Sequence record: NC_022968.1
DNA: 64,000 nt
Source: Escherichia phage 4MG
Strand: one strand, 5' to 3'
The position numbers were made by a program, and so were the translations under genes. Numbering within the stretch: the stretch's first letter is position 1; every line of letters starts with the position of its first letter. Shown here piece after piece: positions 6,351-32,340 of this stretch. A model generated the notes under the pieces. The model searched no databases and was not told the origin of the DNA. It saw only the letters and a program-made list of their open reading frames with translations.

Positions 6351-6631
6351 TGGCTGGAAAGAATACCGTCCGTCTTGTTGAATTCAAAATCAGCGAACGG
6401 GAGAAGGCAGATATCGAAGCTGAACTGGCTGATCTACTGGACGAGGGTTTCACCATTGCATCACAGCACGAAGCTGATGGGTATTTGAACTACACCCTGG
6501 TGCGAACCACGCACAATATCAACATGTTGATTGGTGGTGAAACGGATCATCAAACCCGATCACCTCAGCAGAAATACAAGCTTGAGAACGGCGCTGTTGT
6601 TCCTGTAAACAGCGGTAATGTTCTTCATTGA
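6350..6631 (+). CDS. hypothetical protein
   Basis: ATG at 6350 (MAGKNTV...) inside track ORF 6323..6631. Confidence 0.5.
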   Translation: MAGKNTVRLVEFKISEREKADIEAELADLLDEGFTIASQHEADGYLNYTLVRTTHNINMLIGGETDHQTRSPQQKYKLENGAVVPVNSGNVLH

Positions 6632-6641
6632 TGGAGGTTGA

Positions 6642-7334
6642 TTGACAAAGAAGATCATAATTCTTTATGATTACACCTCGGTAATGGCACAGCCCTGGTT
6701 AAGGGCTGGCTATGAAGTCTGGACTTTTGATGGTCAACATTCCCCCGGCATTCACCGAGAGGGTAACCTGGTTAAGGTTGGTATGTGGTTCTTCCACGAC
6801 AAAACCAACGAGCAGGCATCAGAGATCGCAGAGATGGTTGGTGAAGGTGTTCACCTCGTCTTTGGCTTCCCAGAGTGTACTCACCTAACCAATGCAGGTT
6901 CAAGACATTGGGCTAAAAAACGCGCCGCTAACCCAAACTTCCAGAAGGAAGCAATGGAGTTATGCCTGCTTGTAGAGAAATTGGGTAATGAATGCGGCGT
7001 TCCTTGGGCTTTTGAGAACCCAGTAGGTGTTCTTTCCTCGATGTATCGCAAACCAGATTACATGTTTGATCCAAAGGATTACGGCGGGTATCTTCCTCCC
7101 GATGACGTACACCCTTTATATCCGCATGTATACCCTCCACAGGACGCGTACAACAAGAAGACATGCATTTGGATGGGTAATGGTGCAAAACAGCCTACAA
7201 AGCTTCCTGTGAAGGAATTGCACAAAGATAATCCCGGATGGAGAAAGTGTGGTGGCAAGTCTATCCAGACTAAAAACATCCGTAGCTGTACGCCTCGTGG
7301 TTTCGCAGAGGCTTTCTATCAAGAAAATAAGTAG
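6642..7334 (+). CDS. DNA cytosine-5 methyltransferase-like protein lacking the glycine-rich AdoMet motif I
   Basis: 230 aa; TTG start after GGAGG; motif IV-like FGFPEC (PC Cys), motif VI-like FENPVG (ENV), C-terminal TPRGF (TPRE..GFP-like); no FxGxGG. Confidence 0.45.
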   Translation: MTKKIIILYDYTSVMAQPWLRAGYEVWTFDGQHSPGIHREGNLVKVGMWFFHDKTNEQASEIAEMVGEGVHLVFGFPECTHLTNAGSRHWAKKRAANPNFQKEAMELCLLVEKLGNECGVPWAFENPVGVLSSMYRKPDYMFDPKDYGGYLPPDDVHPLYPHVYPPQDAYNKKTCIWMGNGAKQPTKLPVKELHKDNPGWRKCGGKSIQTKNIRSCTPRGFAEAFYQENK

Positions 7335-15473: not shown

Positions 15474-15794
15474 GTGCTCAACTTTTACCACATTGGTAAA
15501 GTGATCCCTGAAGGTGCGGTCTATGTGGGCCGTACCATGAAGAAGTACGGATTGGTGGGTCACAAGCTTGCTAATCCTTTCCCGTTGAACAAAGACGGGT
15601 CCAACCGTGATGAAGTGATCGAACAGTATCGCCAGTGGTTGTGGAAAAAACTTCATGAGAAGGGTGGTCACTTTAAAGAATTGATTGACCTGGACGGAAA
15701 AGATCTGGTATGCTTCTGTTCACCAAAGAGGTGTCACTGTGATGTGATACTTGCGGCAATCGAATGGGCTAAACAAAGGAGTCAAAATGTCTAA
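15474..15794 (+). CDS. hypothetical protein (Cys/His-containing C-terminus CFCSPKRCHCD)
   Basis: Track ORF 15432..15794; start uncertain (GTG 15474 or later ATG). Confidence 0.4.
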   Translation: MLNFYHIGKVIPEGAVYVGRTMKKYGLVGHKLANPFPLNKDGSNRDEVIEQYRQWLWKKLHEKGGHFKELIDLDGKDLVCFCSPKRCHCDVILAAIEWAKQRSQNV

Positions 15795-16047
15795 ACACAC
15801 ACCGGGTCCCTGGTCAAATGATGGAACAGAGGTCGGCACTGGTATCCTGCACGAAATAAAGATCGCAAAGTGTTGTCTTGTCGGGTACGAGGAGACTCGT
15901 GCCAACGCGAGGCTTATTGCAGCATCGCCGGAAATGTTGGAGCTTCTAGAGCTTTCTCTTCCGTACCTTAACGATGCAGCAAAAACAGATGGTCATGCAT
16001 TTGCAATCTATAATAAGGTTGCAAGAACTATCAAACGTTTCCAGTAG
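15787..16047 (+). CDS. hypothetical protein
   Basis: ATG 15787 after AAGGAG; within track ORF 15751..16047. Confidence 0.5.
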   Translation: MSKHTPGPWSNDGTEVGTGILHEIKIAKCCLVGYEETRANARLIAASPEMLELLELSLPYLNDAAKTDGHAFAIYNKVARTIKRFQ

Positions 16048-16055
16048 GGGATGAC

Positions 16056-16283
16056 ATGCATAAATACTACTTCACCTTCGGAATGAATCAGCAGACGAAG
16101 GATGGTATGTCCCTCGGCAACTTCTACGTCTGCATCGAAGCACCGGACATGAACACTGCACGGTTCGATATGTTCGATGCCCGCGGTAGTTCTTGGTCTT
16201 TTTCTTACACAGAAGAAGAATTTTCTGGACAACCAGAAAAATATGGGTTAACCTCTTTAACGTTAGAGCAAGTAACCTTATAA
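16056..16283 (+). CDS. hypothetical protein
   Basis: 75 aa ORF. Confidence 0.5.
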   Translation: MHKYYFTFGMNQQTKDGMSLGNFYVCIEAPDMNTARFDMFDARGSSWSFSYTEEEFSGQPEKYGLTSLTLEQVTL

Positions 16284-16302
16284 CTTAGGCACAGGAGACA
16301 TC

Positions 16303-16494
16303 ATGAGTCTTAAAAAAGATCACACCTACATCGAGGTGTATAAGAATATTGCTGGCGGCAATTCTCTTGTAATTGCTGATGATAATGGCGGTTATCGCTT
16401 AGTAGGCACAAAGATAACTGGTCAACCAATAGCGCGATTTGAAGTTTCTGTTGAAGAACTCATGGTCGCGGTAAACAATCACCAGGGAGAATAA
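16303..16494 (+). CDS. hypothetical protein
   Basis: 63 aa ORF, AGGAGA SD. Confidence 0.5.
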   Translation: MSLKKDHTYIEVYKNIAGGNSLVIADDNGGYRLVGTKITGQPIARFEVSVEELMVAVNNHQGE

Positions 16495-16495
16495 A

Positions 16496-17218
16496 ATGAA
16501 TACAAATCTGTACATTAAGACAGCGTGGACCGACTTCTATGGTTGGACAAATCTCGAATACCTCTGGCTTCTGATCTGTTCTGCATCTATTGCAACGGTC
16601 TCTATCGTCACAGGGGGTACGATGGTAGAGTTTATCTCCTCCGTCACAGGTATCGTCGGTGCGATTCTGGTTGCGAAAGGTAAACTTTCCAGCTACTATT
16701 GGGGCTTCATTGCCACAGTGCTGTATGCTTATGTGTCGTTCACGTACAAACTCTACGGTGAAACGATCATGTACACCGTCTTGTTTACCCCGATGCAGGT
16801 CATTGGTGGTATTATCTGGGCGCGTAAGCTGAATGTTTCTGCTGATGGTGAACGTGCAGACGTTATCAAGCGCTATCTGACGACGAAACAACGTTGGTTG
16901 GTGGGTCTTGCCACAGCAGCAGCCATTGTGTGTTACGCCCTGTTCATCAAAGAGCTTAAAGGTTCCTTACCTGGTCCTGATGCAGCAACGGCTATCCTGT
17001 CGGTTCTTGCAACGTGGATGATGGTTGTTCGATTGTCTGAACAGTGGTACGTGTGGATCATCGTGAACATCGTGGCTGTAGGTATGTGGGTTAACCTGAC
17101 ACTGCATCACCAGGGTGCTGGAGCAGCAAACCTTGCAATGTGGGTAACATTCCTGTTAAACTCTGTGTATGGCGCTTACAAATGGCGTAAAACAGAAAAG
17201 GAAACAGCATATGCGTGA
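16496..17218 (+). CDS. pnuC: PnuC-like nicotinamide riboside transporter
   Basis: 240 aa polytopic membrane protein; size and multi-TM layout of PnuC; WYVWIIVNIV and GGIIWARK segments resemble PnuC signature regions as recalled from memory; 1.7 kb downstream of the nadR-like gene. Confidence 0.6.
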   Translation: MNTNLYIKTAWTDFYGWTNLEYLWLLICSASIATVSIVTGGTMVEFISSVTGIVGAILVAKGKLSSYYWGFIATVLYAYVSFTYKLYGETIMYTVLFTPMQVIGGIIWARKLNVSADGERADVIKRYLTTKQRWLVGLATAAAIVCYALFIKELKGSLPGPDAATAILSVLATWMMVVRLSEQWYVWIIVNIVAVGMWVNLTLHHQGAGAANLAMWVTFLLNSVYGAYKWRKTEKETAYA

Positions 17219-17429
17219 CTTGATCGTCCCAGCAGCAATCAGTGCCTCGGTGTTCTTTATTGTTCTTGCAATATCCGTCGCACTTGGCTACTATGTTGGC
17301 ATCAGCGCGGGGGAAGTATTCGGAACACCCGGCTTTGGTGAGTACACACAGACATCCGTCGTAGTTGGTTGTACTCTGGGATTACCTCTTGGCATGGCCG
17401 CTTTTGGCATAAGTTCGGGTGTTGCATGA
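17211..17429 (+). CDS. small membrane protein
   Basis: ATG 17211 within track ORF; hydrophobic; overlaps pnuC-like stop. Confidence 0.4.
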   Translation: MRDLIVPAAISASVFFIVLAISVALGYYVGISAGEVFGTPGFGEYTQTSVVVGCTLGLPLGMAAFGISSGVA

Positions 17430-17608
17430 AAATTCGAATCATGATGTTTTTGGCAGTATTCTTTGGTTTGGTGATGTGCTCGGTAGCGGTGGCATTCTGC
17501 GGTGGGGCTAAGTTTGGAACCGACGCGTTTGGGTGGATACTGGCTACAGGGATGATGGTTGGTGTGGTTGGTGGGCTACTGGCAGCAGCGCTGCCTGACT
17601 ACAGATAG
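17426..17608 (+). CDS. small membrane protein
   Basis: ATG 17426 (ATGA overlap); hydrophobic. Confidence 0.4.
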   Translation: MKIRIMMFLAVFFGLVMCSVAVAFCGGAKFGTDAFGWILATGMMVGVVGGLLAAALPDYR

Positions 17609-17616
17609 GGTGAAAA

Positions 17617-18186
17617 GTGAAAAGAACAAAGCATATCAATAAAAATGCTTTCCGGAAGGTAGGGCGCTATGCCCTGCCATTCGCGGTGGCAATCACAGTT
17701 GCAGGTTGTGAGCAAGCAGACATTGACATGAAGATGTATAAGAATGTTGATGAGTGTATTGCGGATACGCACAAACCGGATCAGTGCCGTGCAGCAAGAC
17801 AAGAAGCAGAAAAGGTTGCAAATGAAACTGCGCCACGCTATGCTACTTACTCTGACTGCTACGCTGAGTTCGGTGACCAGTGCCGACACAACCCAAGCAG
17901 TTCAGATGGTGGTTCTTCGTGGATGCCGTTGATGATGGGATACATGATGGGTAACAGCATGAATTCCGGTTATCATTCAGCACCACTGTATCAGGATCGT
18001 TCGGGTCAGTATATGGATAATAAGTTCCGTAGCTACAATGCACGTCCTGGTCAAACGTTTAAGGTGACAAGCTCTGCGGCTAAACCGTCGATCCAGTCTC
18101 CTCGTACAACAGTTTCTCGTAGCACCACATCTTCTCGTGGTGGTTTTGGTAGCTCTGTGAGCAGCCGCTCATCTTTTGGAGGATAA
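17617..18186 (+). CDS. lipoprotein with Ser/Gly-rich C-terminus
   Basis: 189 aa; lipobox-like AITVAGC after hydrophobic N-terminus. Confidence 0.5.
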   Translation: MKRTKHINKNAFRKVGRYALPFAVAITVAGCEQADIDMKMYKNVDECIADTHKPDQCRAARQEAEKVANETAPRYATYSDCYAEFGDQCRHNPSSSDGGSSWMPLMMGYMMGNSMNSGYHSAPLYQDRSGQYMDNKFRSYNARPGQTFKVTSSAAKPSIQSPRTTVSRSTTSSRGGFGSSVSSRSSFGG

Positions 18187-18189
18187 GGA

Positions 18190-18561
18190 ATGATTGGATT
18201 TTGGGAATGGTACACAATGCACAATAACTGGGTGTCTAGTGTTATTCTGCTTGTTATCTTCGGCTTCTGGGGATGGTCATTAGGATCTGGATTCTCCACC
18301 TGGAAACACAAGACAGTTTCCTATCTGTTTGTGGGGGCTGTTGGGTTCCTTATGTTTTATCTGGGGACATATCAGGGTGGATACGGGATGTACAAACGTC
18401 ACTGGACAACTTGTTCTAAACCTGCTGCGGTAGAGGCGTTCTATGTGTTCGATGCACAGAAAGAGCGTTGCTTCAAGCCTGTGGTCGGCTTTGCCCCTGT
18501 TGATGACAATCAGGTTAAAACGCTGACTCCAAAACAAATGGAGACTGGCGAATGGTTATGA
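18190..18561 (+). CDS. membrane protein
   Basis: 123 aa; GGAGGA SD; two hydrophobic helices. Confidence 0.5.
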   Translation: MIGFWEWYTMHNNWVSSVILLVIFGFWGWSLGSGFSTWKHKTVSYLFVGAVGFLMFYLGTYQGGYGMYKRHWTTCSKPAAVEAFYVFDAQKERCFKPVVGFAPVDDNQVKTLTPKQMETGEWL

Positions 18562-18839
18562 AATCAGAACGGACTGGTGAGAACTTTGTACGAATGTACG
18601 AAAAAAGCCTAGAGTTGGGTGTGGAACTCCCCAACCTTGAGGAGAAACTGGTTCTGCAATACTTCCAGGACAATGTTGACAACTTACCAGTTGAATACGA
18701 TAGTCCTGCTGAGTTTCATCGGGCTTTCCGTCAGATAGATGTTTGTCGTAAGGGTTATCAGGACATGGTGATCTGGAGTTTGATGTCTGGCGGGGAATTG
18801 AATACAATCTGGAAAGTTCTGGAGGAATTTTATGCGTAG
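18552..18839 (+). CDS. hypothetical protein
   Basis: 95 aa ORF overlapping neighbours by a few nt. Confidence 0.45.
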   Translation: MVMKSERTGENFVRMYEKSLELGVELPNLEEKLVLQYFQDNVDNLPVEYDSPAEFHRAFRQIDVCRKGYQDMVIWSLMSGGELNTIWKVLEEFYA

Positions 18840-19131
18840 CAGTCATATCTTAGAAGCATGGACGAGAGCCTATGGAAGACCGCAGGAAGATCCGCACGGT
18901 GTCTTTGCAGATCTCCTTGGCGTTGATCGCAATGAGGCGAAGCGTGTTTGCTATGAGTTTATGTGGTCCGATGAAGGCAAGAAAATCTTTGCCGTTGACC
19001 AGTGGCATCACACAAGTCAAGAAGGGCTTTTTATCTATAAATTCTTTAAAGACTTACTGGCACAGGTAAATGTCCATGCAGTGCCTTCGATCACAGAAAT
19101 TCTTCAAATGAGGGAGCAGAATAATGCGTAA
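18832..19131 (+). CDS. hypothetical protein
   Basis: 99 aa ORF. Confidence 0.45.
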   Translation: MRSSHILEAWTRAYGRPQEDPHGVFADLLGVDRNEAKRVCYEFMWSDEGKKIFAVDQWHHTSQEGLFIYKFFKDLLAQVNVHAVPSITEILQMREQNNA

Positions 19132-20117: not shown

Positions 20118-20465
20118 ATGACTGAAGCTGTAACCCCTATCGACAAACAACCCGAAGATCTGCACTTCCTTGACCTTGATGAGGCTCAATTCGGAACGGT
20201 GGTATTCCTTTCAAGCGCTGGCGCTCAAATGAGTCAATTCATTGGCTCAGAACGTATGCGTGAAGAAATGCTCAAAGTTATTAACAGCGGTCAATATGGT
20301 ACTGTTGAAGAGGCTTTGGCATGGGTCCGTGGTCACCGAAACAACCTGCTGCAACTGAATGGTGCGTCATCCTTCGCGATGAACCTGTTGAGCCAGGTTG
20401 AAGACCTGATTGTTGATAGACTTCTGGGTGTTGGTACTGAAACCCAGACTGAAGAAACCAAGTAA
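20118..20465 (+). CDS. hypothetical protein
   Basis: ATG 20118 after GGAGGA; within track ORF 20061..20465. Confidence 0.5.
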   Translation: MTEAVTPIDKQPEDLHFLDLDEAQFGTVVFLSSAGAQMSQFIGSERMREEMLKVINSGQYGTVEEALAWVRGHRNNLLQLNGASSFAMNLLSQVEDLIVDRLLGVGTETQTEETK

Positions 20466-20478
20466 TAAAGGAGAGAGA

Positions 20479-21618
20479 ATGAGCGTAATTACTGAAGTAG
20501 TGAACCCGGCTGATGATTCTGTTGCACTGAAAGCTAAAGGTGTGATCAAACGTATCTTTATCAAGCGTATCAACGCCGATGGTTCACCTAAGGTAACCAA
20601 CATCACCAAGGGTCCAAACAAAGGGAAATCTATTTCCGCGACCCACCGTTATTCCATTCTGCTGACAGCGGGGGGTGTTGATGAATTCGTATCTTTCGGT
20701 GAGGGTGAAGTTAAAAACCTGAAGTACGAAAACCAGTTCCAAGTTAAAACCGACGATGGCTATAAAGATTTGCTGCCCGGTGCAGAGATCTCCATCTACC
20801 CGGTTGAGAAACAGGAATATCAGAAAGATGGTGAAACCAAAGTTTCTTACCAAGGCAAGCGTAAGAACATCAAGATTCTGGTAGATGCACCTGCTGATGC
20901 GGCTCCACAGCAATCAAGTGCTCCGGCACAAACTGGCGGTGCAAAGGGTGCTAAGATCTACGGTGAGATCCTGTCTATCGACGGCAACGTTGCGGTTGTT
21001 AACGATGAGAAGCAGGGTGAGGGGCGTGTGGTTCTGACTGCCGATCAACTAGCAGAGGTTTCTGTGGGTGGTCGTCTGGCTGCTTTCGTAGATCTTTCTA
21101 CAGGCAACATCATCAACAGCTTCAAGGCCTATGGCCCTGTTGGTCAAGGTGGTGGTTCTGGTGGGAAAGGTAAGCGTACCCCTTACGATCCTGTGGGTGT
21201 ATCTGCTGGTCATGCCATGAACGCACTGGTCAACCTGAAGCTGTCAGGCTTTAAGGGTGACGTAGAGGCGGCAGGCAAGGTTGTTCATGATGTGACAACC
21301 AAGCTGATCAAGGAACTTTCCGAAACTGAAGGAAAAGATGTTGGTCAGACTGTAGGTAACGCTGTTAAGTTTGCTGTGACAAACATTGCTGTTAAAGGCA
21401 AGGTTATCGACGCAGATGAACTGGAGAAGGCAACACGCGAAGCGTATGCCCTTGCAGCGACGTTCTATGCATACGCCAGTGCAACTGCACAGGAAGAGGC
21501 TCAGAAGCCAGCACAGAGCGCCCCAGAGCCGCAGGTAGGCAATGGTACAGTATCTGCACCGCCTGTTGATTTCGATGACACCCCTCCTCTGGACTTCGAC
21601 GACGATATTCCGTTCTAA
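20479..21618 (+). CDS. single-stranded DNA-binding protein-like, with bacterial-SSB-type acidic tail
   Basis: ATG 20479 after AAGGAGAGAGA; C-terminus ...VDFDDTPPLDFDDDIPF, identical in its last 8 residues to the canonical E. coli SSB tip. Confidence 0.6.
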   Translation: MSVITEVVNPADDSVALKAKGVIKRIFIKRINADGSPKVTNITKGPNKGKSISATHRYSILLTAGGVDEFVSFGEGEVKNLKYENQFQVKTDDGYKDLLPGAEISIYPVEKQEYQKDGETKVSYQGKRKNIKILVDAPADAAPQQSSAPAQTGGAKGAKIYGEILSIDGNVAVVNDEKQGEGRVVLTADQLAEVSVGGRLAAFVDLSTGNIINSFKAYGPVGQGGGSGGKGKRTPYDPVGVSAGHAMNALVNLKLSGFKGDVEAAGKVVHDVTTKLIKELSETEGKDVGQTVGNAVKFAVTNIAVKGKVIDADELEKATREAYALAATFYAYASATAQEEAQKPAQSAPEPQVGNGTVSAPPVDFDDTPPLDFDDDIPF

Positions 21619-21626
21619 ATAAGAAA

Positions 21627-21649
21627 GGCTCCCGATTGGGAGCCTTTTT
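21627..21649. terminator. bidirectional rho-independent terminator between convergent genes
   Basis: GGCTCCC-GATT-GGGAGCC hairpin with T-runs on both strands. Confidence 0.65.
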
Positions 21650-21650
21650 G

Positions 21651-23354
21651 TTATGGAGCGTTTACCGACAGATAAGAACTATCATCTGCTGTCACAGTCT
21701 GTAGGGCTGCTGTAGCATGGATACGTGTTCCACCGTCAGCCACTGCCGTAATAAGTCCTGTGGAGCTTACTGTGGCGACAGTCGGGTCTTCACTTGAGAA
21801 GGTGATTGAGTAGCCGTCAAGGTTCTCTACACCCGCTGGTGTGACAGTGTATACCAATTGCTTGGTCTCACCAACAGTCATTGCAGAGAGACTATCTGTA
21901 GCCATTCCCATCGTAGAGGCATAACCACCAGAGGTATCTGTCAGAGTTGTTGCACTAGTCCCTGTCTTCGCCGTCATGGTGATATCAAATCCACCTTCCG
22001 CAACGAACGTCATTAATCCGTTAGCATCAACAGTTGCAAACTCTGGGTGACTTGAGCTAAACTGTAGGTCATAGATTTCAGCCCCAGGTGGGTCGATAGA
22101 CCACGTAAGCTGTTTCGTAGCACCAACAATCGCAACACCGATAGCGCCTGTCGTGATGGAATCTGCACGGATACCTTCGAAGGAATTCTCAGGAACGTTT
22201 GTGAAGTTACCAACCACAGTCGTTGATCCGAAAAATCCTTTAGGGTTACCAGTGTAGAACAGGTTACCATCGTAGACCATCCAATGCCCCAGTGTACCAC
22301 CCTGAGCCATGTTGTCTCCTTTTATCTCAGCAACAAAGGTCAGCTTACTCAGGTCCCAATCGGCCCCCGTAGGTACAGGGATGATGGTTGGCACAGTTAC
22401 AGCAGTGGTGGTGTTACCCAGTCCAAGGTTTCTCTGTGAATCACCGAGGGCATATAGAACACCATCAGCGATGAAGAATCTTGATTGTCCACCATCAAGA
22501 ACACGGAAAGTCGTAAAAGGACCGAACGTAGTAACTTTTGTATAGGCCCCGTTACTTGTTGTAATGCCACGGGTGTAAAGATAATGGTCGGTATCTGAAG
22601 CACCAGTAGAGGCGATTGCAATCGTGTTGTCTTCGTTGCACATCCACTCTTTTGCGTAGATGGTCCCGGTAGCCCCTGGGAATGTTACGCTGGCGAAGCT
22701 GGTGATTGGTGTAAATGACCCGTTAATACCGTAAGTAGAACCACATACACGAGGAACACCAACGTTGTTAAGATAGGTCACACAAGCATTCAGGCCAAAC
22801 GCACGGACACAGGAAGAACTAATTGTTCGCGGGATAGAGATCGGGTTTGAGTTTCCTGATCCCAGACATCCGTTTGCATTAGATCCGCTGCCATAAAGAG
22901 TTCCGTTGTTCATGACCCACAATGCGTTACCACCACCACCAACCACACTGACAAGGTTTGCCAGGTTAACAGTGCCAGTAATTGAAGATGGAAAACTGGT
23001 CCATGCCATCATGTTAGCCGTTGTACCTGTGAACTGACCTTGGTCACCCGCATATTGCCAGCCACCGCTATTATATTTTACAACAAAAGCCTTCCCAACA
23101 CCAAAAACATCTGCTACATTACTTGCAGCAAGCTTCCAGTGATCGTAAAATGGGCTGGTTGTTCCATCTGCACATTCACCCCAAGCGTTATCACCTTGGG
23201 TGTATAGTCTTCCGTCAGACAGCAGGATAGCCATAGATCTTTTAACACCTGTGGTCTGCTCTCTTGTGAAGGCAATCTTTTTTACCCCGCCTGGTGGCAG
23301 AGGTGTTGTCCCACCACCCGCCATTAGCAGGAAGAGACTTGGGATAGGAAACAT
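21651..23354 (-). CDS. fiber/virion protein with RCC1-like repeats and two Big_2-like Ig domains
   Basis: 567 aa; repeated LYxxGxNxxGxLG motifs; C-terminal Ig-like segments; AGGAGG SD. Confidence 0.55.
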   Translation of the reverse strand: MFPIPSLFLLMAGGGTTPLPPGGVKKIAFTREQTTGVKRSMAILLSDGRLYTQGDNAWGECADGTTSPFYDHWKLAASNVADVFGVGKAFVVKYNSGGWQYAGDQGQFTGTTANMMAWTSFPSSITGTVNLANLVSVVGGGGNALWVMNNGTLYGSGSNANGCLGSGNSNPISIPRTISSSCVRAFGLNACVTYLNNVGVPRVCGSTYGINGSFTPITSFASVTFPGATGTIYAKEWMCNEDNTIAIASTGASDTDHYLYTRGITTSNGAYTKVTTFGPFTTFRVLDGGQSRFFIADGVLYALGDSQRNLGLGNTTTAVTVPTIIPVPTGADWDLSKLTFVAEIKGDNMAQGGTLGHWMVYDGNLFYTGNPKGFFGSTTVVGNFTNVPENSFEGIRADSITTGAIGVAIVGATKQLTWSIDPPGAEIYDLQFSSSHPEFATVDANGLMTFVAEGGFDITMTAKTGTSATTLTDTSGGYASTMGMATDSLSAMTVGETKQLVYTVTPAGVENLDGYSITFSSEDPTVATVSSTGLITAVADGGTRIHATAALQTVTADDSSYLSVNAP

Positions 23355-23373
23355 TAAAACCTCCTAAAGAAAA

Positions 23374-23391
23374 GGCTGTCCGAAGACAGCC
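23374..23391 (-). terminator. intergenic UUCG hairpin + U-tract (terminator/attenuator)
   Basis: Minus-strand GGCTGTC-UUCG-GACAGCC followed by UUUUCUUU. Confidence 0.5.
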
Positions 23392-23398
23392 CTTGGTA

Positions 23399-25198
23399 TT
23401 ACGGACGACGAACAATAACGGTGTCGATCACACCATCTTCAACGCCATTATAGGTTAGCTGAAGGATGGTTACAGAACCCGCAGTCTGATTGATTGTCTC
23501 GCTGTTGAGAACCAGATAGTTAGGGTCCAGTGTGACAGTATGACCTCCGGTGGCATCCTGAGTCAGATAAATCATCGCAGAGAATGCGTTTGGTGGAGAA
23601 GGCCATGCACCGATTGTCAGGTTAGCATCAACCAGCACAGTGTAGATGTTGGATGTACCACTCGGTGTCCAGTTAGCCGTTGAGCTTTCTACATCTTCCG
23701 CAACAAGAGTCAGGAATCCAACACGAGCATTAGGAAGGTCTGCGGTATCTTGTACCGTCAGAGTAGCAGCCGTAACAGATCCTGTAGCTGTCAGAGAAGC
23801 AACGCTAACAGATTGTCCGGTAAGGTCAACTGTCAGTCCAGTTACAGTCCCTTGGATAACAAGGTTATTAACCGTAGTTGTTCCAGACCCGTTATTCAGG
23901 GTCACATCCCCGGTAGCAGACAGGTTACCAGTGATTGCTACATCGCCAGTTACGTTAAGGCCTGAAAGAAGCTCTGTTGAACCAGTTACAGACAGATTAC
24001 CACCGATTGCGCCATTAGCAGAACCTGTAGTGAAACCGCCGTTAAGGTTGCTCAGACCACCAACAGTGAAAGGTCCTGTGATTGTACCACTTGAGGCAGT
24101 GAAGTCAACAAGGGTTGTTGACCCATCTACCTTCAGGGTGTTAATCACCTCAAGACTTGAAAATGTGGTGTTGCCGAGAGTAGCAGAACCGTTAACAACC
24201 AGGTCAGAACCAACAGTTACACCTGCGGTAGTCGTAACAGAGTTAGGCAGAATGTCAAGGCCATTAACACTGAAGCTCAAACCAGTCACAGAACCTGTGA
24301 TATGGAGGTTCTCAACCTCTGTCATTCCTGATACTTTCAGACGCGGAGCGGAGATATCCTTCGCGTTATTACCACGGATATACACATAATCGAAGACGTT
24401 GTTACCAACACCTGTCAGAGACATTGTTGTGTCATCAGCAGCAACTGTGCCGTTGACAATAATGTCTGTTTGCAGGTTGTGGGTCTGGATCGCATAAGGA
24501 TCAAGACGGGTCTTGAAGAATGTTGGGTTTCCTGCATCTGTATAGACGAAAGTAAGGCTTGAAGCCTGCTTAGTCAAAATCAGGTTTTGGAAACGTCCGG
24601 TGGAGTTGTCTGCGTTGACCGGGCCGTTAAGAGTGGTTGTACCATTCACAGTCAAGTTGTTCAGTGTCGTTGCACCAGAAACAGTTACGTTCGCAAAGGT
24701 AACACTACCACCAGAGATACTGGACAAAGCATTTGCAATCGCAGTCGTAACGAAAGCGGTTGTTGCAATTGTCGTACTGTTGCTGTTTGCAGCAGGTGTT
24801 GGGGCCTGCGGGTTACCTGTCAGGATTGGGCTGTTGATTGGAGCATAGATGGATGCCATCGCCGCTGCATCATTGTACAGTCTCCAGTTGACGCTGGTAG
24901 ATGGGTTTGCTGGGAGAGTTACAGGAGCAGTTGCCGTTGCACCCGGAGCATACCACCACTGAACACCATTGGTGCCATTAAATGCGTAAAGCTGGTTAAA
25001 GACCGTCGCTTGAGACCCGGCTACCCAGGGAATAGGCGGTGTCTTGAAAAATAAGTTGTCCAGAAGTGCTTTACGAACTGTTGGGATGGTGCTACCATCT
25101 TCAGTAACAACAGTTTCAGAAGCAGTACCGTTGACAACTTTGTGCAGGCGTTCAGAGTCTTCGATGACCTGATCAACAGCCTGTTCAAATTGAGTCAT
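23399..25198 (-). CDS. tail fiber protein
   Basis: Thr/Ser/Gly/Asn-rich beta-type repeats (NLTVNGTTTLNG...); start ambiguous (ATG 25198 vs GTG 25243). Confidence 0.55.
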   Translation of the reverse strand: MTQFEQAVDQVIEDSERLHKVVNGTASETVVTEDGSTIPTVRKALLDNLFFKTPPIPWVAGSQATVFNQLYAFNGTNGVQWWYAPGATATAPVTLPANPSTSVNWRLYNDAAAMASIYAPINSPILTGNPQAPTPAANSNSTTIATTAFVTTAIANALSSISGGSVTFANVTVSGATTLNNLTVNGTTTLNGPVNADNSTGRFQNLILTKQASSLTFVYTDAGNPTFFKTRLDPYAIQTHNLQTDIIVNGTVAADDTTMSLTGVGNNVFDYVYIRGNNAKDISAPRLKVSGMTEVENLHITGSVTGLSFSVNGLDILPNSVTTTAGVTVGSDLVVNGSATLGNTTFSSLEVINTLKVDGSTTLVDFTASSGTITGPFTVGGLSNLNGGFTTGSANGAIGGNLSVTGSTELLSGLNVTGDVAITGNLSATGDVTLNNGSGTTTVNNLVIQGTVTGLTVDLTGQSVSVASLTATGSVTAATLTVQDTADLPNARVGFLTLVAEDVESSTANWTPSGTSNIYTVLVDANLTIGAWPSPPNAFSAMIYLTQDATGGHTVTLDPNYLVLNSETINQTAGSVTILQLTYNGVEDGVIDTVIVRRP

Positions 25199-25217
25199 AT
25201 CTGCCACAAGAGTCTCC

Positions 25218-25487
25218 TTATTGGTCTGACTTTTGCTCTTCACGTTGGGCTTCTGTTACGCCCCAACGAAGAGAGATGAGTTTACTGATAAGTTGCGGTG
25301 CAGCAACAGTGGGTGCATATACCCACATATACCACTCTGTCAACGTGCCTTTGAATCCCCAATAGAGGAATACTGCGGTCATAGATGCCAGGCCGATATT
25401 GCTCCAGAACTTTGTGTGTGAAGCCTTCTCAGGATCAACTGGTGATCTAACGAGGTCCTTCAAAAATTTCATTATTGATTTTAACAT
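25218..25487 (-). CDS. small membrane protein
   Basis: 89 aa, one hydrophobic helix; GAGG SD. Confidence 0.4.
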   Translation of the reverse strand: MLKSIMKFLKDLVRSPVDPEKASHTKFWSNIGLASMTAVFLYWGFKGTLTEWYMWVYAPTVAAPQLISKLISLRWGVTEAQREEQKSDQ

Positions 25488-25502
25488 ATTTCCTCAAGAT
25501 TC

Positions 25503-25976
25503 TCAATGAACTAACATGGGGAGGAACCTTGCAAGAACCACGAGGCTTACCACGGTTGCAGTCTTAATCCACTCTTTGACTGTGTTATCCTTGAAGGATG
25601 CACAAAGGATCAGAACCTCCATAAAGGTCTGGTATGACGAGTTGATGACAAAGTTCAATGCAAATGGTAAGAGGAATGGAAATTGCATGACTATTATCTG
25701 GCAGAAGAGTATTGGAACCGACACGGCAAGTGTCAACTTCTTCTTCCATCCCGACAATACACACGCTGTACAAAATAAAAGGGCGATGTCGAGTAACCAA
25801 CAGAACGTCATATACAACGACAGATCAAAATAAACACTGTGTGCAGAGAACCACCAGTACATAAAGTTCTCTAGAAGAATATGGATCATACCAAAGATAG
25901 ACATGATCCGTATTCCCTTGTCAGTATTAAGCAGCAGCACTGCAAAGCAAATGAAATACAGTGCTGAACTTATCAT
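25503..25976 (-). CDS. polytopic membrane protein
   Basis: 157 aa, about 4 hydrophobic helices. Confidence 0.4.
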   Translation of the reverse strand: MISSALYFICFAVLLLNTDKGIRIMSIFGMIHILLENFMYWWFSAHSVYFDLSLYMTFCWLLDIALLFCTACVLSGWKKKLTLAVSVPILFCQIIVMQFPFLLPFALNFVINSSYQTFMEVLILCASFKDNTVKEWIKTATVVSLVVLARFLPMLVH

Positions 25977-26287
25977 TTGAATTGACGCTCCATTAGCATT
26001 TGAAACTGCTTGCTAAGGTCGCTACGTAAGTCACCAACGTCATCCTTGATGTCTTTACGCAATTCTGAAACGTCATCACGAACCGTCTTGAGTTTCTTAT
26101 CGAGAATCTCATCCAGTTTTTCTTTTGTGACCATCTCTGCCTTAATCCTTATGATATCTTTATCAAGTTCATCAAGGCGTTCTTGCGTTTTTTTGTAGTC
26201 AGAGTATGTGATTCTCAGGACACCAATCAGCACAAACGTGATAACGCCCCATACGGCTTTAAGGATAGCAAATAGATCAATGGACAT
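25973..26287 (-). CDS. membrane-anchored coiled-coil protein
   Basis: 104 aa; N-terminal TM then charged heptad-like region. Confidence 0.4.
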   Translation of the reverse strand: MSIDLFAILKAVWGVITFVLIGVLRITYSDYKKTQERLDELDKDIIRIKAEMVTKEKLDEILDKKLKTVRDDVSELRKDIKDDVGDLRSDLSKQFQMLMERQFK

Positions 26288-26296
26288 GGTAGCTCC

Positions 26297-26812
26297 TTAT
26301 ACGCGAGGTTGCTTTGGTAGAGAACCTACGTCTTGAGCTTCACGAACCTTGACTCTATAGGCTTTCCAGTTCTTAAGAGCGGTTACCTCTCCGGCAGTTG
26401 CCGTTTCCAGATCCACTTTGTCCTGATACTGAGCGATCTTATCGTTCGCCAGTGCCAGAAGATTTTGTTTCTGGGTATCAAGATCTCTCGTCAAGAAATC
26501 AGGGTTGATCTTGAATTTGAGAGTCTTTGGGTCAAAGAGGTATTTGCGACCAAGCTCCAGATCAGCAGGCACCTTATCCAGAGGAACCTCAATCAGAGAG
26601 GCCCCCGGTGGATACAGGGAACTAGCATCAAGGGAGAACCCGGTGACAATCCCATCTACGTACAAGACCTTCATTGTGTCTTCTTTCATATCCTTAATGG
26701 CCTCGTAGAAATCCTGACCATCTTTGGATCTGAAGAACATTACGCCGTAAGCAGCAAGTTCTTCAGGAACTTTCTCAGGAGTATAGATCTCCACGTTCTT
26801 AAGGTGTACCAT
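26297..26812 (-). CDS. putative tail fiber assembly protein
   Basis: 171 aa directly downstream of a fiber gene (position-based inference). Confidence 0.35.
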   Translation of the reverse strand: MVHLKNVEIYTPEKVPEELAAYGVMFFRSKDGQDFYEAIKDMKEDTMKVLYVDGIVTGFSLDASSLYPPGASLIEVPLDKVPADLELGRKYLFDPKTLKFKINPDFLTRDLDTQKQNLLALANDKIAQYQDKVDLETATAGEVTALKNWKAYRVKVREAQDVGSLPKQPRV

Positions 26813-26823
26813 ACATCCTCCTG

Positions 26824-27936
26824 TTATAATTGCCCGATTGTGTACCAGCCGCCGTTGATATACTTCTGGATAGGACGGGAATACATATCACGGAATTCGT
26901 CGTTGTTACCTGATTTAGACCAGATGTTAAAACCTGTCACAACACATCCACCAGGCGCACGGTAAACAAAGGATTCGTTACCCAGAGAATAACGGTTTGT
27001 AGAAATTTCTGAGCCAAGACGCATATCCTGAACACCTTGTGGTGGCAGGGAAATTGTTACGTTACCATTACCGTCTGCGGTGTTACCGTTCACAGCACGG
27101 ACAACATGACGACCACCAACCGTTGCGCTGTTGTTCTGGACAACGAGGTTGGCAGTTGTAGTCGTTGAACTCACGTTAAGAGTTCCGGTTGAAACGTTGT
27201 TAGTAGCCACAACGTTGGTAGCACGGGTAGTTGTTGACTGGAGGGTGTTGACCGTCCAAGTGTTGCTCACTGTACCGTTTGTGAAAGTCGCAGAGGTTGC
27301 TGTCATTGAAGAACCCTGAATACTTCCGCTTGCAATGATGTTACCAGTTACACGACACAGAGCAGCCGTAGCGCTGATCGCGTTAAGCTCCATCATCGTA
27401 AAGATGCTACCACCAGAAGGTGTAAAGCGGAAACGCATTGTGTCTACACCGGAAGCCCCTGCGGTCCCTGGGTTATCGCCAAGAACAAAGTCAAAGTATG
27501 TCCAGTCAGATGCCGGGTTGGTTGTGGTGATGTAAGCAAAGTCAGAAGAAGATGCCTGCAAATCCAGACGAGGAACAGACAGGTTACCCGTCATGGTATC
27601 GCCAGAGATATTCACATAGCGAGTATCTGACTCACCCTTGCTCCAAACATCAAGATTTGTACGGGCTGTTGCCTTGTTAGGGACATCAGCAAGGTTTTGA
27701 GTTACACGCAGGAAACGACTGTCAAGACCGGGGATTTGCTCACCCGTGATGTACTTCGCCCATGCTGTCACCATGTTTAACACATAGTTGAACTCTTCAC
27801 AAGAGGGTTTCTCTCCCAGATCCCAACCTTTATTCCAAAGGTCATCAATAGGACGGGATTTGTTTAACTCGTGGGTGTTAGGGAGGACAATGTTCCCATA
27901 GGCCCAAATTTCAATAGGTACTGTTGGCGCTGCCAT
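26824..27936 (-). CDS. tail fiber protein
   Basis: 370 aa; Thr/Asn/Ser-rich repeats; in P2-like J-I-H-G gene order. Confidence 0.5.
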   Translation of the reverse strand: MAAPTVPIEIWAYGNIVLPNTHELNKSRPIDDLWNKGWDLGEKPSCEEFNYVLNMVTAWAKYITGEQIPGLDSRFLRVTQNLADVPNKATARTNLDVWSKGESDTRYVNISGDTMTGNLSVPRLDLQASSSDFAYITTTNPASDWTYFDFVLGDNPGTAGASGVDTMRFRFTPSGGSIFTMMELNAISATAALCRVTGNIIASGSIQGSSMTATSATFTNGTVSNTWTVNTLQSTTTRATNVVATNNVSTGTLNVSSTTTTANLVVQNNSATVGGRHVVRAVNGNTADGNGNVTISLPPQGVQDMRLGSEISTNRYSLGNESFVYRAPGGCVVTGFNIWSKSGNNDEFRDMYSRPIQKYINGGWYTIGQL

Positions 27937-27947
27937 TGTAATCTCCC

Positions 27948-28580
27948 TTAAATCAAGGTATTCTCTTCATCAGACGTGTATGTCAGGTGAGCAAGGCCAC
28001 CTTCACCTGTACGACCACCGGAGTGGATTGAGCCGAAGCCCAGTGCGTATTTATCGCCTGAGAATCCAAAAGCCGTACCGCTGGACTCAGTGAGTCTCAG
28101 GTGGGTAGGCATAGGCAACATGTCTTGGATCTCCTGGAGAGCAGTCTCCAGTTCAAAACATGTCTTGGAAATGTTGATGTCGAAACGGTAGTTGTCACCT
28201 TTGTATGTGGTGAAGTTACCAGTCCCAAATAATTGATCGAGCGTGTCAATAACCTCAGGTCTTGTACCGTGCTTCGCAGCACTCGCAAGAAGGATGATGA
28301 TGATCGCACGATAGTTCATATCGCTAAGACCATTACGTTCGATCCCGACCTGCTTACCAATCTCATCGAGGTTGACACCCGTCGCATTCTTCAGTAATCT
28401 ACCTTCAGACAGATTGACCCACATTTCGTCAACTGCCTTAAGTCTTTCAAGATACACTGTCAGAAATTTGACAAGGTTTTCTTTCTCTTTCAGAAAATCG
28501 CCAGGGAGGTAATCAATACCTCCTTGAACGAAATCTGGCAGAGTATGGATGTGGTTGACATCCTTTAGATAATCTGCCAT
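27948..28580 (-). CDS. baseplate protein (gpI-like by position)
   Basis: 210 aa between J-like and fiber genes. Confidence 0.4.
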   Translation of the reverse strand: MADYLKDVNHIHTLPDFVQGGIDYLPGDFLKEKENLVKFLTVYLERLKAVDEMWVNLSEGRLLKNATGVNLDEIGKQVGIERNGLSDMNYRAIIIILLASAAKHGTRPEVIDTLDQLFGTGNFTTYKGDNYRFDINISKTCFELETALQEIQDMLPMPTHLRLTESSGTAFGFSGDKYALGFGSIHSGGRTGEGGLAHLTYTSDEENTLI

Positions 28581-28590
28581 GCTTACCTCG

Positions 28591-30084
28591 TTAGATGATT
28601 TGCTGGAAGGTGATGTCGTCAGTATCCAGTGCGAACACTTCTGTCATTCCAGCAACAACATCGCTGTTGGTGTAGGAACTGTCAGGTTGACCAACGTTCT
28701 TCACATCGACGAACAATTGAGTGAATCGTCCAGGAGAAATTGAAGAACCAACAGCAGAAACCAACTGGATGTTGTACAGGGTGTCTGCAATATTGAGCGG
28801 ATCAACGACTGCCTTCAAAGCATCCTTAATAGTGTTCTGCTCTGTCACAGACAGAAGCTTACCCTTGTAACGAACTCGGATAGCAAGTTCACGGGCTTGT
28901 GCTTTGCTGTGGAAAATACGTTCTGTCTGGTCATCCTCGGTAGTGATGTCATAGAATACATTTCCGTAGGTTCCGTTTGACAGTGCGATTGTGTTGTAAA
29001 GTGCTTCACTGATGTCTTCCGTTGAACCACCATACACCACAGTTTCAAACTTGTAAGCTGGAACGCCATACTGGTCTGTTGACCCGGTGTTGTTTGAGAA
29101 CACACGTACTTTGCTCACACCCTCTACGTTGAGAACAGCAGAGATAACAGCAGGACGAGTTGCAGCAGCGCCAGCGGCGGTACTGTTAGCAGCACGGACT
29201 TTATAGTCAGTATCTGTTTCAACATCGGACCCATCGTTAAATGCGGTCATGTTGGTCATGCTGATAAAGCCACTTGGTGTTGGGCTAATATTGGTTACAG
29301 TGTTTGCTTCACGAGAGATCTCACCAGCTTCTGAGGCAATAACATCCATCGTGATTGTTCTCTGTCCGATCACCGGAGAGGAACGGAAGTCAACACGACT
29401 GTTAAGACCAATCATCTTTTTGTTGGCATCATAACCAATGTACAGAGCACCGTTCGCTGAGTCAATGAAGATTCTGTCTTCGTTCAACTGAGTGGTGTTC
29501 TGGATGATGAAGTCTTTGATGGAGGACATAAAGGCATTCATCTGAGCGCTGTTAGGCGTTTTATTACTCAGAGTCAGAGCCATTGTCTTTGTCGTACCAT
29601 CATTCTGGTTCATCATCTGGAAGGTGTAGTTACCGAGTACCCAGTCCGGGTTAAGGATCTGCTGTGCAAGAATGTTACCCGCCACAGGAGTATCCTGGTT
29701 AAGTACGAAGTTACCGCTGTCAATGCTGTATGTTCCAGCACTGTAAATCATGTTGTACGGAACGGTGTTGTTAATCACCATCTGTACTGTGCCGGAACCT
29801 CTTGTTTTCCCACGACGATAAATACCACGACGACCAAGCAGTTCATCCAGGTAAATACCTTCAGCACCTGCAAGTGTCTGTGCAGAATACACAGATGCAG
29901 CCAGAAGGATCAACTGGTACTCTCTTTCATTCAGAATTGTGGTAAGCTTATCAACGATAGTGTTTGACTGTGTGTTGAAGTTCTCACCGAAAGTTCGGAT
30001 TAGTGACTGCTTGGTATCTGCGATTAGATCATCAAGGGATGGGATCGCAAAGCCGTAGTCGTTTAATCCATATTGAGCAGCCAC
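28591..30084 (-). CDS. baseplate J-like protein
   Basis: 497 aa; GTG start; size and position consistent with baseplate wedge. Confidence 0.45.
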   Translation of the reverse strand: MAAQYGLNDYGFAIPSLDDLIADTKQSLIRTFGENFNTQSNTIVDKLTTILNEREYQLILLAASVYSAQTLAGAEGIYLDELLGRRGIYRRGKTRGSGTVQMVINNTVPYNMIYSAGTYSIDSGNFVLNQDTPVAGNILAQQILNPDWVLGNYTFQMMNQNDGTTKTMALTLSNKTPNSAQMNAFMSSIKDFIIQNTTQLNEDRIFIDSANGALYIGYDANKKMIGLNSRVDFRSSPVIGQRTITMDVIASEAGEISREANTVTNISPTPSGFISMTNMTAFNDGSDVETDTDYKVRAANSTAAGAAATRPAVISAVLNVEGVSKVRVFSNNTGSTDQYGVPAYKFETVVYGGSTEDISEALYNTIALSNGTYGNVFYDITTEDDQTERIFHSKAQARELAIRVRYKGKLLSVTEQNTIKDALKAVVDPLNIADTLYNIQLVSAVGSSISPGRFTQLFVDVKNVGQPDSSYTNSDVVAGMTEVFALDTDDITFQQII

Positions 30085-30163
30085 GAACGCCTCCTCTTGC
30101 TAGATTTTTGCTCTAAGATGTTGCTATTTTATCATATTGTGATTTAATTATAAAGGCTTATAA

Positions 30164-30185
30164 TGAGAAAAGGGGCCGAAGCCCC
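30164..30185 (-). terminator. rho-independent terminator after tailspike gene
   Basis: Minus-strand GGGGC-UUCG-GCCCC followed by UUUUCUC. Confidence 0.6.
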
Positions 30186-30192
30186 TTGTTAT

Positions 30193-32331: not shown

Positions 32332-32340
32332 TAATTCCTC

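Follow-up and report, generated by a model that had tools for sequence, protein, structure and literature searches.

The protein encoded at positions 21651–23354 is, in the reading that we favor (probability of about 0.6), an accessory tail-fiber protein, a probably monomeric module that would bind the host surface and be docked on the upstream fiber through a short N-terminal peptide. The gene is real. It encodes a phage tail accessory protein that joins an RCC1-like β-propeller of seven blades to a pair of Ig-like domains. In rV5/PVP-SE1-like phages from at least five genera, the last slot of the tail-fiber cluster is swappable and is taken by members of the family to which the protein belongs.

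The listing of open reading frames for the window, by which we mean the whole stretch of 64,000 nucleotides that was analyzed, contains a minus-strand frame that spans 21651–23354 exactly. It codes for 567 residues (58.8 kDa, pI 4.7), arranged as an N-terminal peptide, the RCC1-like propeller, and two Big_2 domains, and the phage that carries it is a Seunavirus-like myophage of the PVP-SE1/GAP31 type. Full-length orthologues are gp232 of Cronobacter phage GAP31, annotated as a tail protein (93% amino acid identity), and gp40 of Salmonella phage PVP-SE1, annotated as hypothetical with an Ig-like domain (57% amino acid identity). Both also follow a fiber of PHROG 4549, have the same peptide-propeller-Ig-Ig order, and differ from the 567-residue protein by sequence divergence only; in the PVP-SE1 clade, the second Ig domain is replaced and is 26–33% identical to the one described here. 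A full-length match was obtained to the profile of PHROG 11922 (E = 0, 1047.8 bits), the "tail protein" family of the terminal slot of the lateral-fiber module in Vequintavirinae and Stephanstirmvirinae. Residues 1–566 align to profile positions 1–564 of 870, and the last ~300 positions at the C-terminal end of the profile have no counterpart in the 567-residue protein. A search of NCBIfam with the protein gave no match. The protein is an addition to an already catalogued family, and a fairly ordinary one.

The propeller covers residues 24–392 (22179–23285, minus strand). A preliminary description of this DNA had noted at least three copies of an LYxxGxNxxGxLG-type motif, which is correct for relaxed forms of the motif. 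These number four to five (residues 50, 153, 259, 300, and 365), against a mean of 0.5–1.0 in 2000 shuffled sequences, 0.2% of which reached the observed count; the literal motif is present once, at residue 153. Seven repeat units of ~50 residues can be aligned by eye, near residues 50, 101, 153, 204, 259, 300, and 365, and the structure model folds them into a seven-bladed propeller. Pfam RCC1 (PF00415) matches residues 150–180 with 36.9 bits (gathering cut-off 21.7), and the whole-domain model PF25390 (RCC1-like domain) stays at 36 bits, well short of its cut-off of 150. The protein is a divergent RCC1-like member, recognizable by its repeats and fold and not by the full-domain profile. The two Big_2 Ig-like domains follow at residues 396–478 (21921–22169, minus strand) and 479–567 (21654–21920, minus strand). 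Each is seen both as a Pfam match and as a β-sandwich in the structure model, and the Big_2 profile (PF02368) scores 81.4 bits in two stretches (cut-off 22.8). The combination of an RCC1-like propeller with two Big_2 segments, which had been proposed from the letters alone, is borne out by these matches and by the predicted propeller fold. No paralogue of the propeller or the Ig pair was found by tblastn in the 64-kb window, where the sole extra match was that of the two Ig domains to each other.

The lateral tail-fiber module ends with this gene, which directly follows a fiber gene of the PHROG 4549 type with a conserved C-terminal domain (23399–25243, minus strand; the start is uncertain, and the GAP31 start lies 12 codons later). 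Upstream of this fiber gene lie baseplate genes, the gene for a colanidase-type spike, and those for a short fiber and its chaperone. Evidence for the earlier assignment to the virion is good: the gene closes the fiber module, and orthologues are annotated as tail proteins. Indirectly, the assignment also agrees with data on relatives: PVP-SE1 gp040 appears in a list of structural proteins, and two divergent slot members were detected by mass spectrometry in purified virions, W70_106 with 115 spectra and CB7_37 with 4 peptides. A 2026 cryo-EM study of phi92 neither places nor mentions the slot protein.

The cargo carried behind the peptide in this slot varies among relatives. It can be a propeller alone, a propeller with Ig domains, Ig domains with an esterase-like region, or a chain of up to 1,878 residues. 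The Certrevirus protein CR9_033 (388 residues) consists of peptide and propeller only, and FFH2 ORF26 reaches 1,875 residues. L010 is a close relative, with 73% identity in the C-terminal domain of the fiber; there, Ig domains and a weak match to SASA esterase replace the propeller. ESCO13 gp245 (Phapecoctavirus, phAPEC8 type, 891 residues) has the same slot, peptide, propeller, and Ig pair, with 45% identity over residues 1–566, but it has an additional C-terminal domain of ~300 residues that the 567-residue protein lacks; some Phapecoctavirus slot members contain DUF285 repeats in place of this domain. PaulScherrer bas60_0037 (phi92-like, Justusliebigvirus), annotated as [quoted passage not shown] occupies the same slot with the peptide MYPIPLF and an N-terminal Ig pair ~55% identical to that of the 567-residue protein. 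It has no propeller, and a region of ~445 residues annotated as glycosidase/esterase is found instead; its C-terminal domain is common to ESCO13 (63% identity). In W70_106, CB7_37, and CR9_033, the same type of peptide in the same slot is followed by RCC1-like blades without Ig domains. W70_106 aligns to residues 1–124 (30% identity, hhalign probability 95.8%), and its homology to the 567-residue protein is recognizable over the peptide and blades 1–2 only. For W70_106 and CB7_37 together, the hhalign probability of 95.8% refers to residues 1–122.

The N-terminal peptide comprises residues 1–23 (23286–23354, minus strand), with the core MFPIPSLFLL as the proposed docking plug. Met-1, Pro-3, and Pro-5 are invariant among 28 homologues, and the slot gene starts with M-[FYLI]-P-[IVF]-P in five genera as well as in 11 of 11 metagenomic loci. 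A PLPPGxVKK section is present only in the propeller-bearing versions. In PaulScherrer, the peptide is joined straight to the Ig pair, without a propeller. The peptide does not depend on the propeller: it persists where the propeller is missing, and residues 1–18 are disordered in the monomer model (pLDDT < 50). A six-frame search of the window revealed no second protein that bears it. Two other explanations of the peptide were considered and rejected. A signal peptide or lipoprotein signal was dismissed by inspection, as there is no basic n-region and no cysteine, and a "velcro" strand of the propeller does not agree with its retention in PaulScherrer.

The proposed socket is a domain of ~105 residues at the C terminus of the upstream fiber (fiber residues 508–613; 23405–23722, minus strand). 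This is the only part of the fiber conserved across genera: it shows 48–56% identity to ESCO13 gp246 and PaulScherrer 0036, over that stretch alone, and it is also kept in CR9, FFH2, and W70. The peptide and the fiber domain co-occur in all 11 metagenomic loci and in six phages (GAP31, ESCO13, PaulScherrer, CR9, FFH2, and W70). From this co-conservation and the synteny, within one related phage group, we infer that the peptide may dock on the fiber domain; shared ancestry could also yield both observations.

The ribosome-binding site of the slot gene, AGGAGG (23360–23365, minus strand), lies 5 nucleotides 5' of the ATG. Between the fiber stop codon and AGGAGG, a terminator-like hairpin followed by a T-tract can be read from the sequence, AAGGGCTGTC-TTCG-GACAGCCTTT (23371–23394, minus strand; ΔG −16.6 kcal/mol, z −3.2). 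Counterpart hairpins with differing stem sequences are present at the junction of fiber and slot gene in eight lineages; they were folded lineage by lineage, RNAalifold on a MAFFT alignment having put the stems out of register. Directly after the stop codon of the slot gene, an intrinsic terminator hairpin, AAAGGCTCCC-AATC-GGGAGCCTTT (21624–21647, minus strand), is common to the convergent gene and closes the tail transcription unit. The hairpin before the slot gene probably holds its expression below that of the fiber.

In the mechanism that we propose, the peptide of ~10 residues (M-F/Y/L/I-P-I/V/F-P plus hydrophobic residues) would dock the protein on the C-terminal domain of the fiber just upstream. 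As a probable monomer, the protein could be present in up to three copies per trimeric fiber. The Ig pair would act as a spacer and weak glycan binder, and the propeller would be a swappable head that touches a polysaccharide or protein on the host surface. Such a contact would help the initial reversible adsorption on some hosts, and virion assembly would not need the protein. That the propeller may bind a carbohydrate or protein on the host surface, as suggested in the preliminary description, is plausible because relatives use the same slot for a carbohydrate-esterase-like region or for other modules. Against it, RCC1-like domains are best known as platforms for protein-protein interaction, not as lectins. 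On K-12, Vequintavirus can do without the tail-fiber genes located at this end of the module, and on clinical isolates these genes are conditionally essential; their correspondence to the slot is putative.

Selection on the gene was estimated by comparison with GAP31. The dN/dS ratio is 0.032 for the whole coding sequence and ~0.03 in each domain (0.025–0.035), which indicates strong and uniform purifying selection; dN is 0 in the N-terminal peptide. The same comparison was used to look for positive selection on the propeller, and none was found. Receptor-binding tips often show diversifying selection, and the low, uniform dN/dS counts against a tip of this kind. The purifying selection would suit a structural adaptor or branch point, in which the propeller holds another fiber or spike, or stabilizes the fiber bundle, and makes no host contact. 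Such a role would also be in keeping with the closest structural relatives, UVR8, RPGR, HERC2, RCC1, and BLIP-II, all of which bind proteins via the propeller, and with the several co-expressed fiber sets of these phages. We nevertheless consider an adaptor unlikely. Within the family, the propeller, and blades 4–7 especially, is the most variable domain and diverges faster than the Ig pair. Relatives drop the propeller or swap in esterase-like or Ig-only cargo while keeping the slot, which is hard to square with a load-bearing role. Moreover, the slot gene is terminal with none encoded beyond it, and propeller-only versions are known.

The Ig pair brings in a further possibility, a Hoc-like decoration of the capsid or sheath whose Ig domains adhere weakly to mucus or environmental glycans without a role in host recognition. 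The pair does match the Hoc-like protein 7x30_P (E = 4e-4), as well as PHROG 215 ("structural protein with Ig domain") and Ig modules carried by major tail proteins, and Ig-like domains on phages are classically accessory (Fraser et al., 2006). The surroundings of the Ig domains make a decoration protein improbable, however: no capsid-binding domain is recognizable, the gene closes the fiber module and not the head module, the peptide always accompanies the C-terminal domain of the adjoining fiber, and slot proteins of relatives are annotated as enzymatic lateral-fiber proteins.

The names "lateral tail fiber protein" and "tail protein" given to relatives would also fit a tail fiber or tailspike of the classical kind, a homotrimer formed by the propeller-Ig chain and bound directly to the baseplate. 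The structure model shows globular β domains only, namely the propeller and the two Ig sandwiches, and contains no coiled coil, β-helix, or triple-helical shaft. Neither Pfam nor PHROG profiles match a baseplate-attachment domain in the 567-residue protein, and monomers are the norm for seven-bladed propellers and for Big_2 domains. With both the trimerizing shaft and the attachment domain missing from model and profile matches, this arrangement is quite improbable. Phage RCC1-like proteins often bear the name "DNA condensation" protein, but such an internal role is very improbable here. The name was carried over from eukaryotic RCC1, the idea has been raised as speculation for phAPEC6 and W70, and PHROG 4219 is classed under DNA metabolism. 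However, the fold as such does not confer the chromatin binding of RCC1, and the protein is acidic, as is the propeller alone (pI 6.3); neither guanine-nucleotide exchange nor chromatin binding is to be expected of it. Its extracellular-type Ig domains, its place in the fiber module, and a slot common to proteins annotated as enzymatic fibers all speak against it.

A more general form of the docked-head reading is put forward tentatively, and we regard it as possible but rather doubtful. The peptide and the ~105-residue fiber domain would be a universal plug and socket across Vequintavirinae and Stephanstirmvirinae, with unrelated monomeric cargo (RCC1-like propellers, Ig stalks, esterase-like regions, and giant chains of 1,800 residues) recombined between two conserved terminator hairpins. 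Phage proteins named "regulator of chromosome condensation" or "DNA condensation" would then generally be misnamed monomeric receptor-binding heads.

The very broad host range for which phages of the rV5, PVP-SE1, and phi92 groups are prized is credited to a multi-fiber "Swiss army knife." If recognized, a constant peptide with interchangeable cargo in one slot would be a handle for assigning unresolved fiber density and for engineering host range through cargo swaps, and the annotation of phage RCC1-like proteins as DNA condensation proteins, which is misleading, would be put right. The gain from the gene at 21651–23354 alone is modest, as it is a close orthologue of proteins already deposited and annotated.

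RCC1-like propellers had been called rare in phage structural proteins at the outset, and here the data disagree. PHROGs 4219, 7220, and 16766 are such families, BFVD contains dozens of phage proteins with the fold, including podovirus tail fibers, the jumbo phage phAPEC6 encodes eleven, and the W70 virion holds three more. Literature searches revealed no experimentally characterized phage RCC1-like receptor-binding protein. The other phage proteins (PHROGs 4219, 7220, and 16766; those of phAPEC6, PBECO4, and GAP32; the tail fibers of the Pseudomonas phages Littlefix and PollyC; and W70_237–239) share the fold with the 567-residue protein, and several are virion-associated or fused to tail-fiber N-terminal domains. 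They differ in that they lie at other loci, lack the Big_2 pair, and have other attachment sequences, such as MLEM[ML]NLG in W70_237–239. Eukaryotic UVR8, RPGR, HERC1/2, and RCC1 and bacterial BLIP-II differ from the phage protein in other ways: PF25390 is far below its cut-off in the phage protein, there is no sign of an exchange factor (GEF), photoreceptor, or inhibitor role, and the setting is a phage virion. In Salmonella and Escherichia phages of ~52 kb, the major tail proteins contain Ig modules that have the same Big_2 fold and are 42–46% identical to the Ig pair, which points to module exchange. In those major tail proteins and in T4 Hoc-type proteins, however, the Ig domains are located on the tube or the capsid, whereas the pair described here comes after a propeller, in a protein of the fiber locus.

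The slot gene, which closes the lateral tail-fiber module, is a single open reading frame at 21651-23354 on the minus strand, and an AGGAGG stands 5 nt 5' of its ATG. It encodes a protein of 567 residues, here called the window protein. The preliminary description credited this protein with repeated LYxxGxNxxGxLG-type motifs, and repeats are indeed present: the literal motif occurs once, at residue 153, and relaxed copies bring the total to 4-5, compared with 0.5-1.0 expected from shuffled sequences. Seven units that fit the pattern h-h-x-x-x-G-x-h-[YFWC]-x-x-G-x(3-6)-G align at approximately residues 50, 101, 153, 204, 259, 300, and 365. The RCC1 and Big_2 domains claimed at the same time were both recovered with Pfam, RCC1 at 36.9 bits (cut-off 21.7) and two Big_2 domains at 81.4 bits (cut-off 22.8). 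The whole-domain RLD model of Pfam scores far under its cut-off (36 versus 150 bits). The propeller is of the RCC1-like type, divergent but bona fide, and both Ig domains belong to the standard Big_2 kind.

Cronobacter phage GAP31 (Vequintavirinae, Seunavirus) has a counterpart in gp232, named "tail protein" in RefSeq, with 82.6% DNA and 93.3% protein identity. Identity to PVP-SE1 gp40 is 57%. PHROG 11922, also "tail protein," matches the window protein end to end (E = 0), with the match spanning profile positions 1-564 only, out of 870. Directly upstream lies the PHROG 4549 tail fiber (23399-25243, minus strand). Further up the same strand are three small membrane-protein ORFs, a tail-fiber assembly protein, and a short fiber, followed by baseplate proteins, a colanic-acid-degrading spike homologue, and a large tail protein. 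These upstream tail-module genes are 94-99.5% identical to those of GAP31, and the next gene past the slot gene is convergent, on the opposite strand. This order places the slot gene at the end of the late tail-fiber module.

Several features of the module were observed alongside. The longest-ORF start of the PHROG 4549 fiber is a GTG at 25243, giving a 26-nt overlap with the preceding ORF; the GAP31 fiber start is annotated 12 codons further in, which leaves the actual start uncertain. The three small ORFs (89, 157, and 104 aa; 25218-26287, minus strand), situated between the tail-fiber assembly and fiber genes, have PVP-SE1 counterparts annotated as membrane proteins and are kept in GAP31 as gp228-230; their dN/dS values (0.075-0.116) are the highest in the module. 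The spike homologue (30193-32331, minus strand; PHROG 6117, E 9e-295) is 98% identical to GAP31 gp223, and the phage thus has at least one enzymatic spike beside the propeller protein.

Evidence from virions comes from related phages. In W70 the slot is filled by W70_106, which begins MIPFPIINFGGGVPLPVG and is homologous to residues 1-122 of the window protein (30% identity; hhalign probability 95.8%). Mass spectrometry of purified W70 virions gave 115 spectra for W70_106, and its orthologue CB7_37 was detected in CB7 virions with 4 peptides (19% coverage). PVP-SE1 gp040 is paired with rV5 gp28 in a published structural-protein table. Virion membership of W70_106 and CB7_37, together with the position at the end of the tail-fiber module, supports the earlier proposal of a virion protein, and assignment as a tail-associated accessory subunit is well supported. 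The W70 virion holds three further RCC1-type proteins (PHROG 4219). These MS-verified proteins, W70_237-239 (15543-19041 of the W70 locus, L007), have 25-28% mutual identity and a common N-terminal peptide, MLEM[ML]NLG, which suggests a second, independent attachment design of a short N-terminal peptide plus propeller in the same subfamily.

The databases contain 48 homologues of the window protein, almost all of them from contigs 140-155 kb long. Among annotated relatives, the slot after the fiber is filled by very different proteins. CR9_033 of CR9 (Certrevirus; 388 aa) consists of an N-terminal peptide and the propeller only, and the Seunavirus proteins (the window protein, GAP31 gp232, and PVP-SE1 gp40; 564-609 aa) add two Ig domains. 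ESCO13 gp245 (Phapecoctavirus; 891 aa) carries a further C-terminal domain of ~300 aa, and some members of this type have DUF285 repeats there. In bas60_0037 of PaulScherrer (phi92-like Justusliebigvirus; 939 aa) the propeller is absent, and the peptide is followed by an Ig pair 55% identical to that of the window protein, a region annotated as glycosidase/esterase, and the ESCO13-type C-terminal domain. FFH2 ORF26 (Vequintavirus; 1,875 aa) has the peptide MLPIPLL, a propeller-like N terminus, and ~1,400 more residues. At its start, the 390-nt "intergenic" stretch between the fiber gene and this giant gene (6485-6868 of the FFH2 locus, L005) repeats the junction, with a hairpin, a ribosome-binding site, and ATG CTT CCA ATC CCT..., which encodes MLPIPLLKLG. 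Either a tandem duplication or an additional, truncated copy of the slot gene 5' end is suggested by this arrangement. A truncated version of 289 aa is found in another locus, L016.

The only part common to all five builds is the extreme N terminus, M-[FYLI]-P-[IVF]-P with hydrophobic residues after it, in which M1, P3, and P5 are invariant in an alignment of 28 homologues. In the upstream fibers, cross-genus conservation is confined to the last ~105 residues (33-56% identity). A search of viral contigs with an alignment of this C-terminal domain gave 13 loci, 11 of which extend downstream. In all 11 the next gene begins with the same type of peptide, with cargo of 388 to 1,878 aa. In one of the compared loci, L010, the C-terminal domain of the fiber is 73% identical to that of the window, and the slot protein has Ig domains and a weak SASA-type esterase match where the window protein has its propeller. 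The peptide might have been a closure strand of the propeller, a role rejected because it is retained in slot proteins that lack a propeller. In the monomer model residues 1-18 are disordered (pLDDT <50).

Co-conservation of peptide and fiber domain, and the independence of the peptide from its cargo, lead us to propose that the peptide would plug into the C-terminal domain of the upstream fiber. The Ig pair would serve as a spacer, and the propeller as an interchangeable head that binds a ligand on the host surface. The latter role is suggested by the esterase-like or other cargo that replaces the propeller in relatives and by its faster divergence: in the wider family the propeller, blades 4-7 above all, diverges faster than the Ig pair (65% versus 86% in one example). 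In the PVP-SE1 clade the second Ig domain has been exchanged. In a Vequintavirus profiled by HIDEN-SEQ, tail-fiber genes near this module end are not required on K-12 and are conditionally essential on clinical isolates, a pattern that by analogy would fit an accessory host-range role.

It is possible that the propeller is instead a purely structural adaptor, as RCC1-like domains usually bind proteins, but this fits poorly with a propeller that is dispensable and exchangeable in relatives. The Ig matches hint at a Hoc-like decoration, but the position of the gene and its connection with the fiber speak against one. In the monomer model neither a shaft nor a trimerisation element is predicted, so the window protein is probably monomeric; a classical trimeric fiber receives no support from this model. 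The idea of a "DNA condensation" protein, taken from the phage literature, conflicts with the acidic character of the protein (pI 4.7), with its Ig domains, and with the locus.

Compared with GAP31, the slot gene has a dN/dS of 0.032 as a whole and 0.025-0.035 per domain, and in its N-terminal peptide dN = 0. Its dS of 1.2 exceeds the 0.22-0.94 of its neighbours, which suggests mosaic history rather than adaptive change. Over 21651-35130 dS against GAP31 spans five-fold (0.22-1.2), with all genes under purifying selection; this spread indicates that the tail locus has a mosaic, recombinant history.

A GC-rich tetraloop hairpin, with TTTTCTTT after it, separates the fiber stop codon from the ribosome-binding site (23394-23366, minus strand; ΔG -16.6 kcal/mol, z -3.2), and a strong hairpin terminator lies directly 3' of the slot gene (21647-21624, minus strand), so that the gene is bracketed by two terminator-like elements. 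A hairpin with a T-tract occurs at the same junction in GAP31, a PVP-SE1-type locus, L010, ESCO13, PaulScherrer, CR9, FFH2, and W70. In eight lineages (loci L001, L002, L003, L004, L005, L009, L010, and L021) these hairpins have at least six different stem sequences, with z from -2.3 to -3.7, and are conserved as structure. We infer that the slot gene is expressed by read-through, below the level of the fiber; the junction hairpin probably sets the ratio between the two by acting as a leaky terminator.

The convergent neighbour (20410-21618, plus strand; PHROG 4477, unknown function) has no Pfam or PDB sequence match. It ends ...PPVDFDDTPPLDFDDDIPF, which corresponds to the acidic tip at the C terminus of E. 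coli SSB (DFDDDIPF). The neighbour may be an SSB of the phage, or else a mimic recruiting SSB-binding host proteins. Its true start is probably after the TTG at 20410, since the PHROG match begins at residue 24.

The literature searched gives no tested function or virion placement for the window protein, and in the 2026 phi92 structure the fibers are unassigned and the slot protein goes unmentioned. RCC1-like propellers had been called rare in phage structural proteins, an argument that fails because they are common in phages: PHROGs contains several such families (4219, 7220, and 16766), BFVD holds many phage entries, podovirus tail fibers among them, and phAPEC6 has eleven copies. The slot gene product is a real, ordinary tail accessory protein of a family already catalogued as PHROG 11922 and annotated in RefSeq, to which the proposed plug-and-socket pattern with swappable cargo and the conserved junction hairpin add modest new observations.
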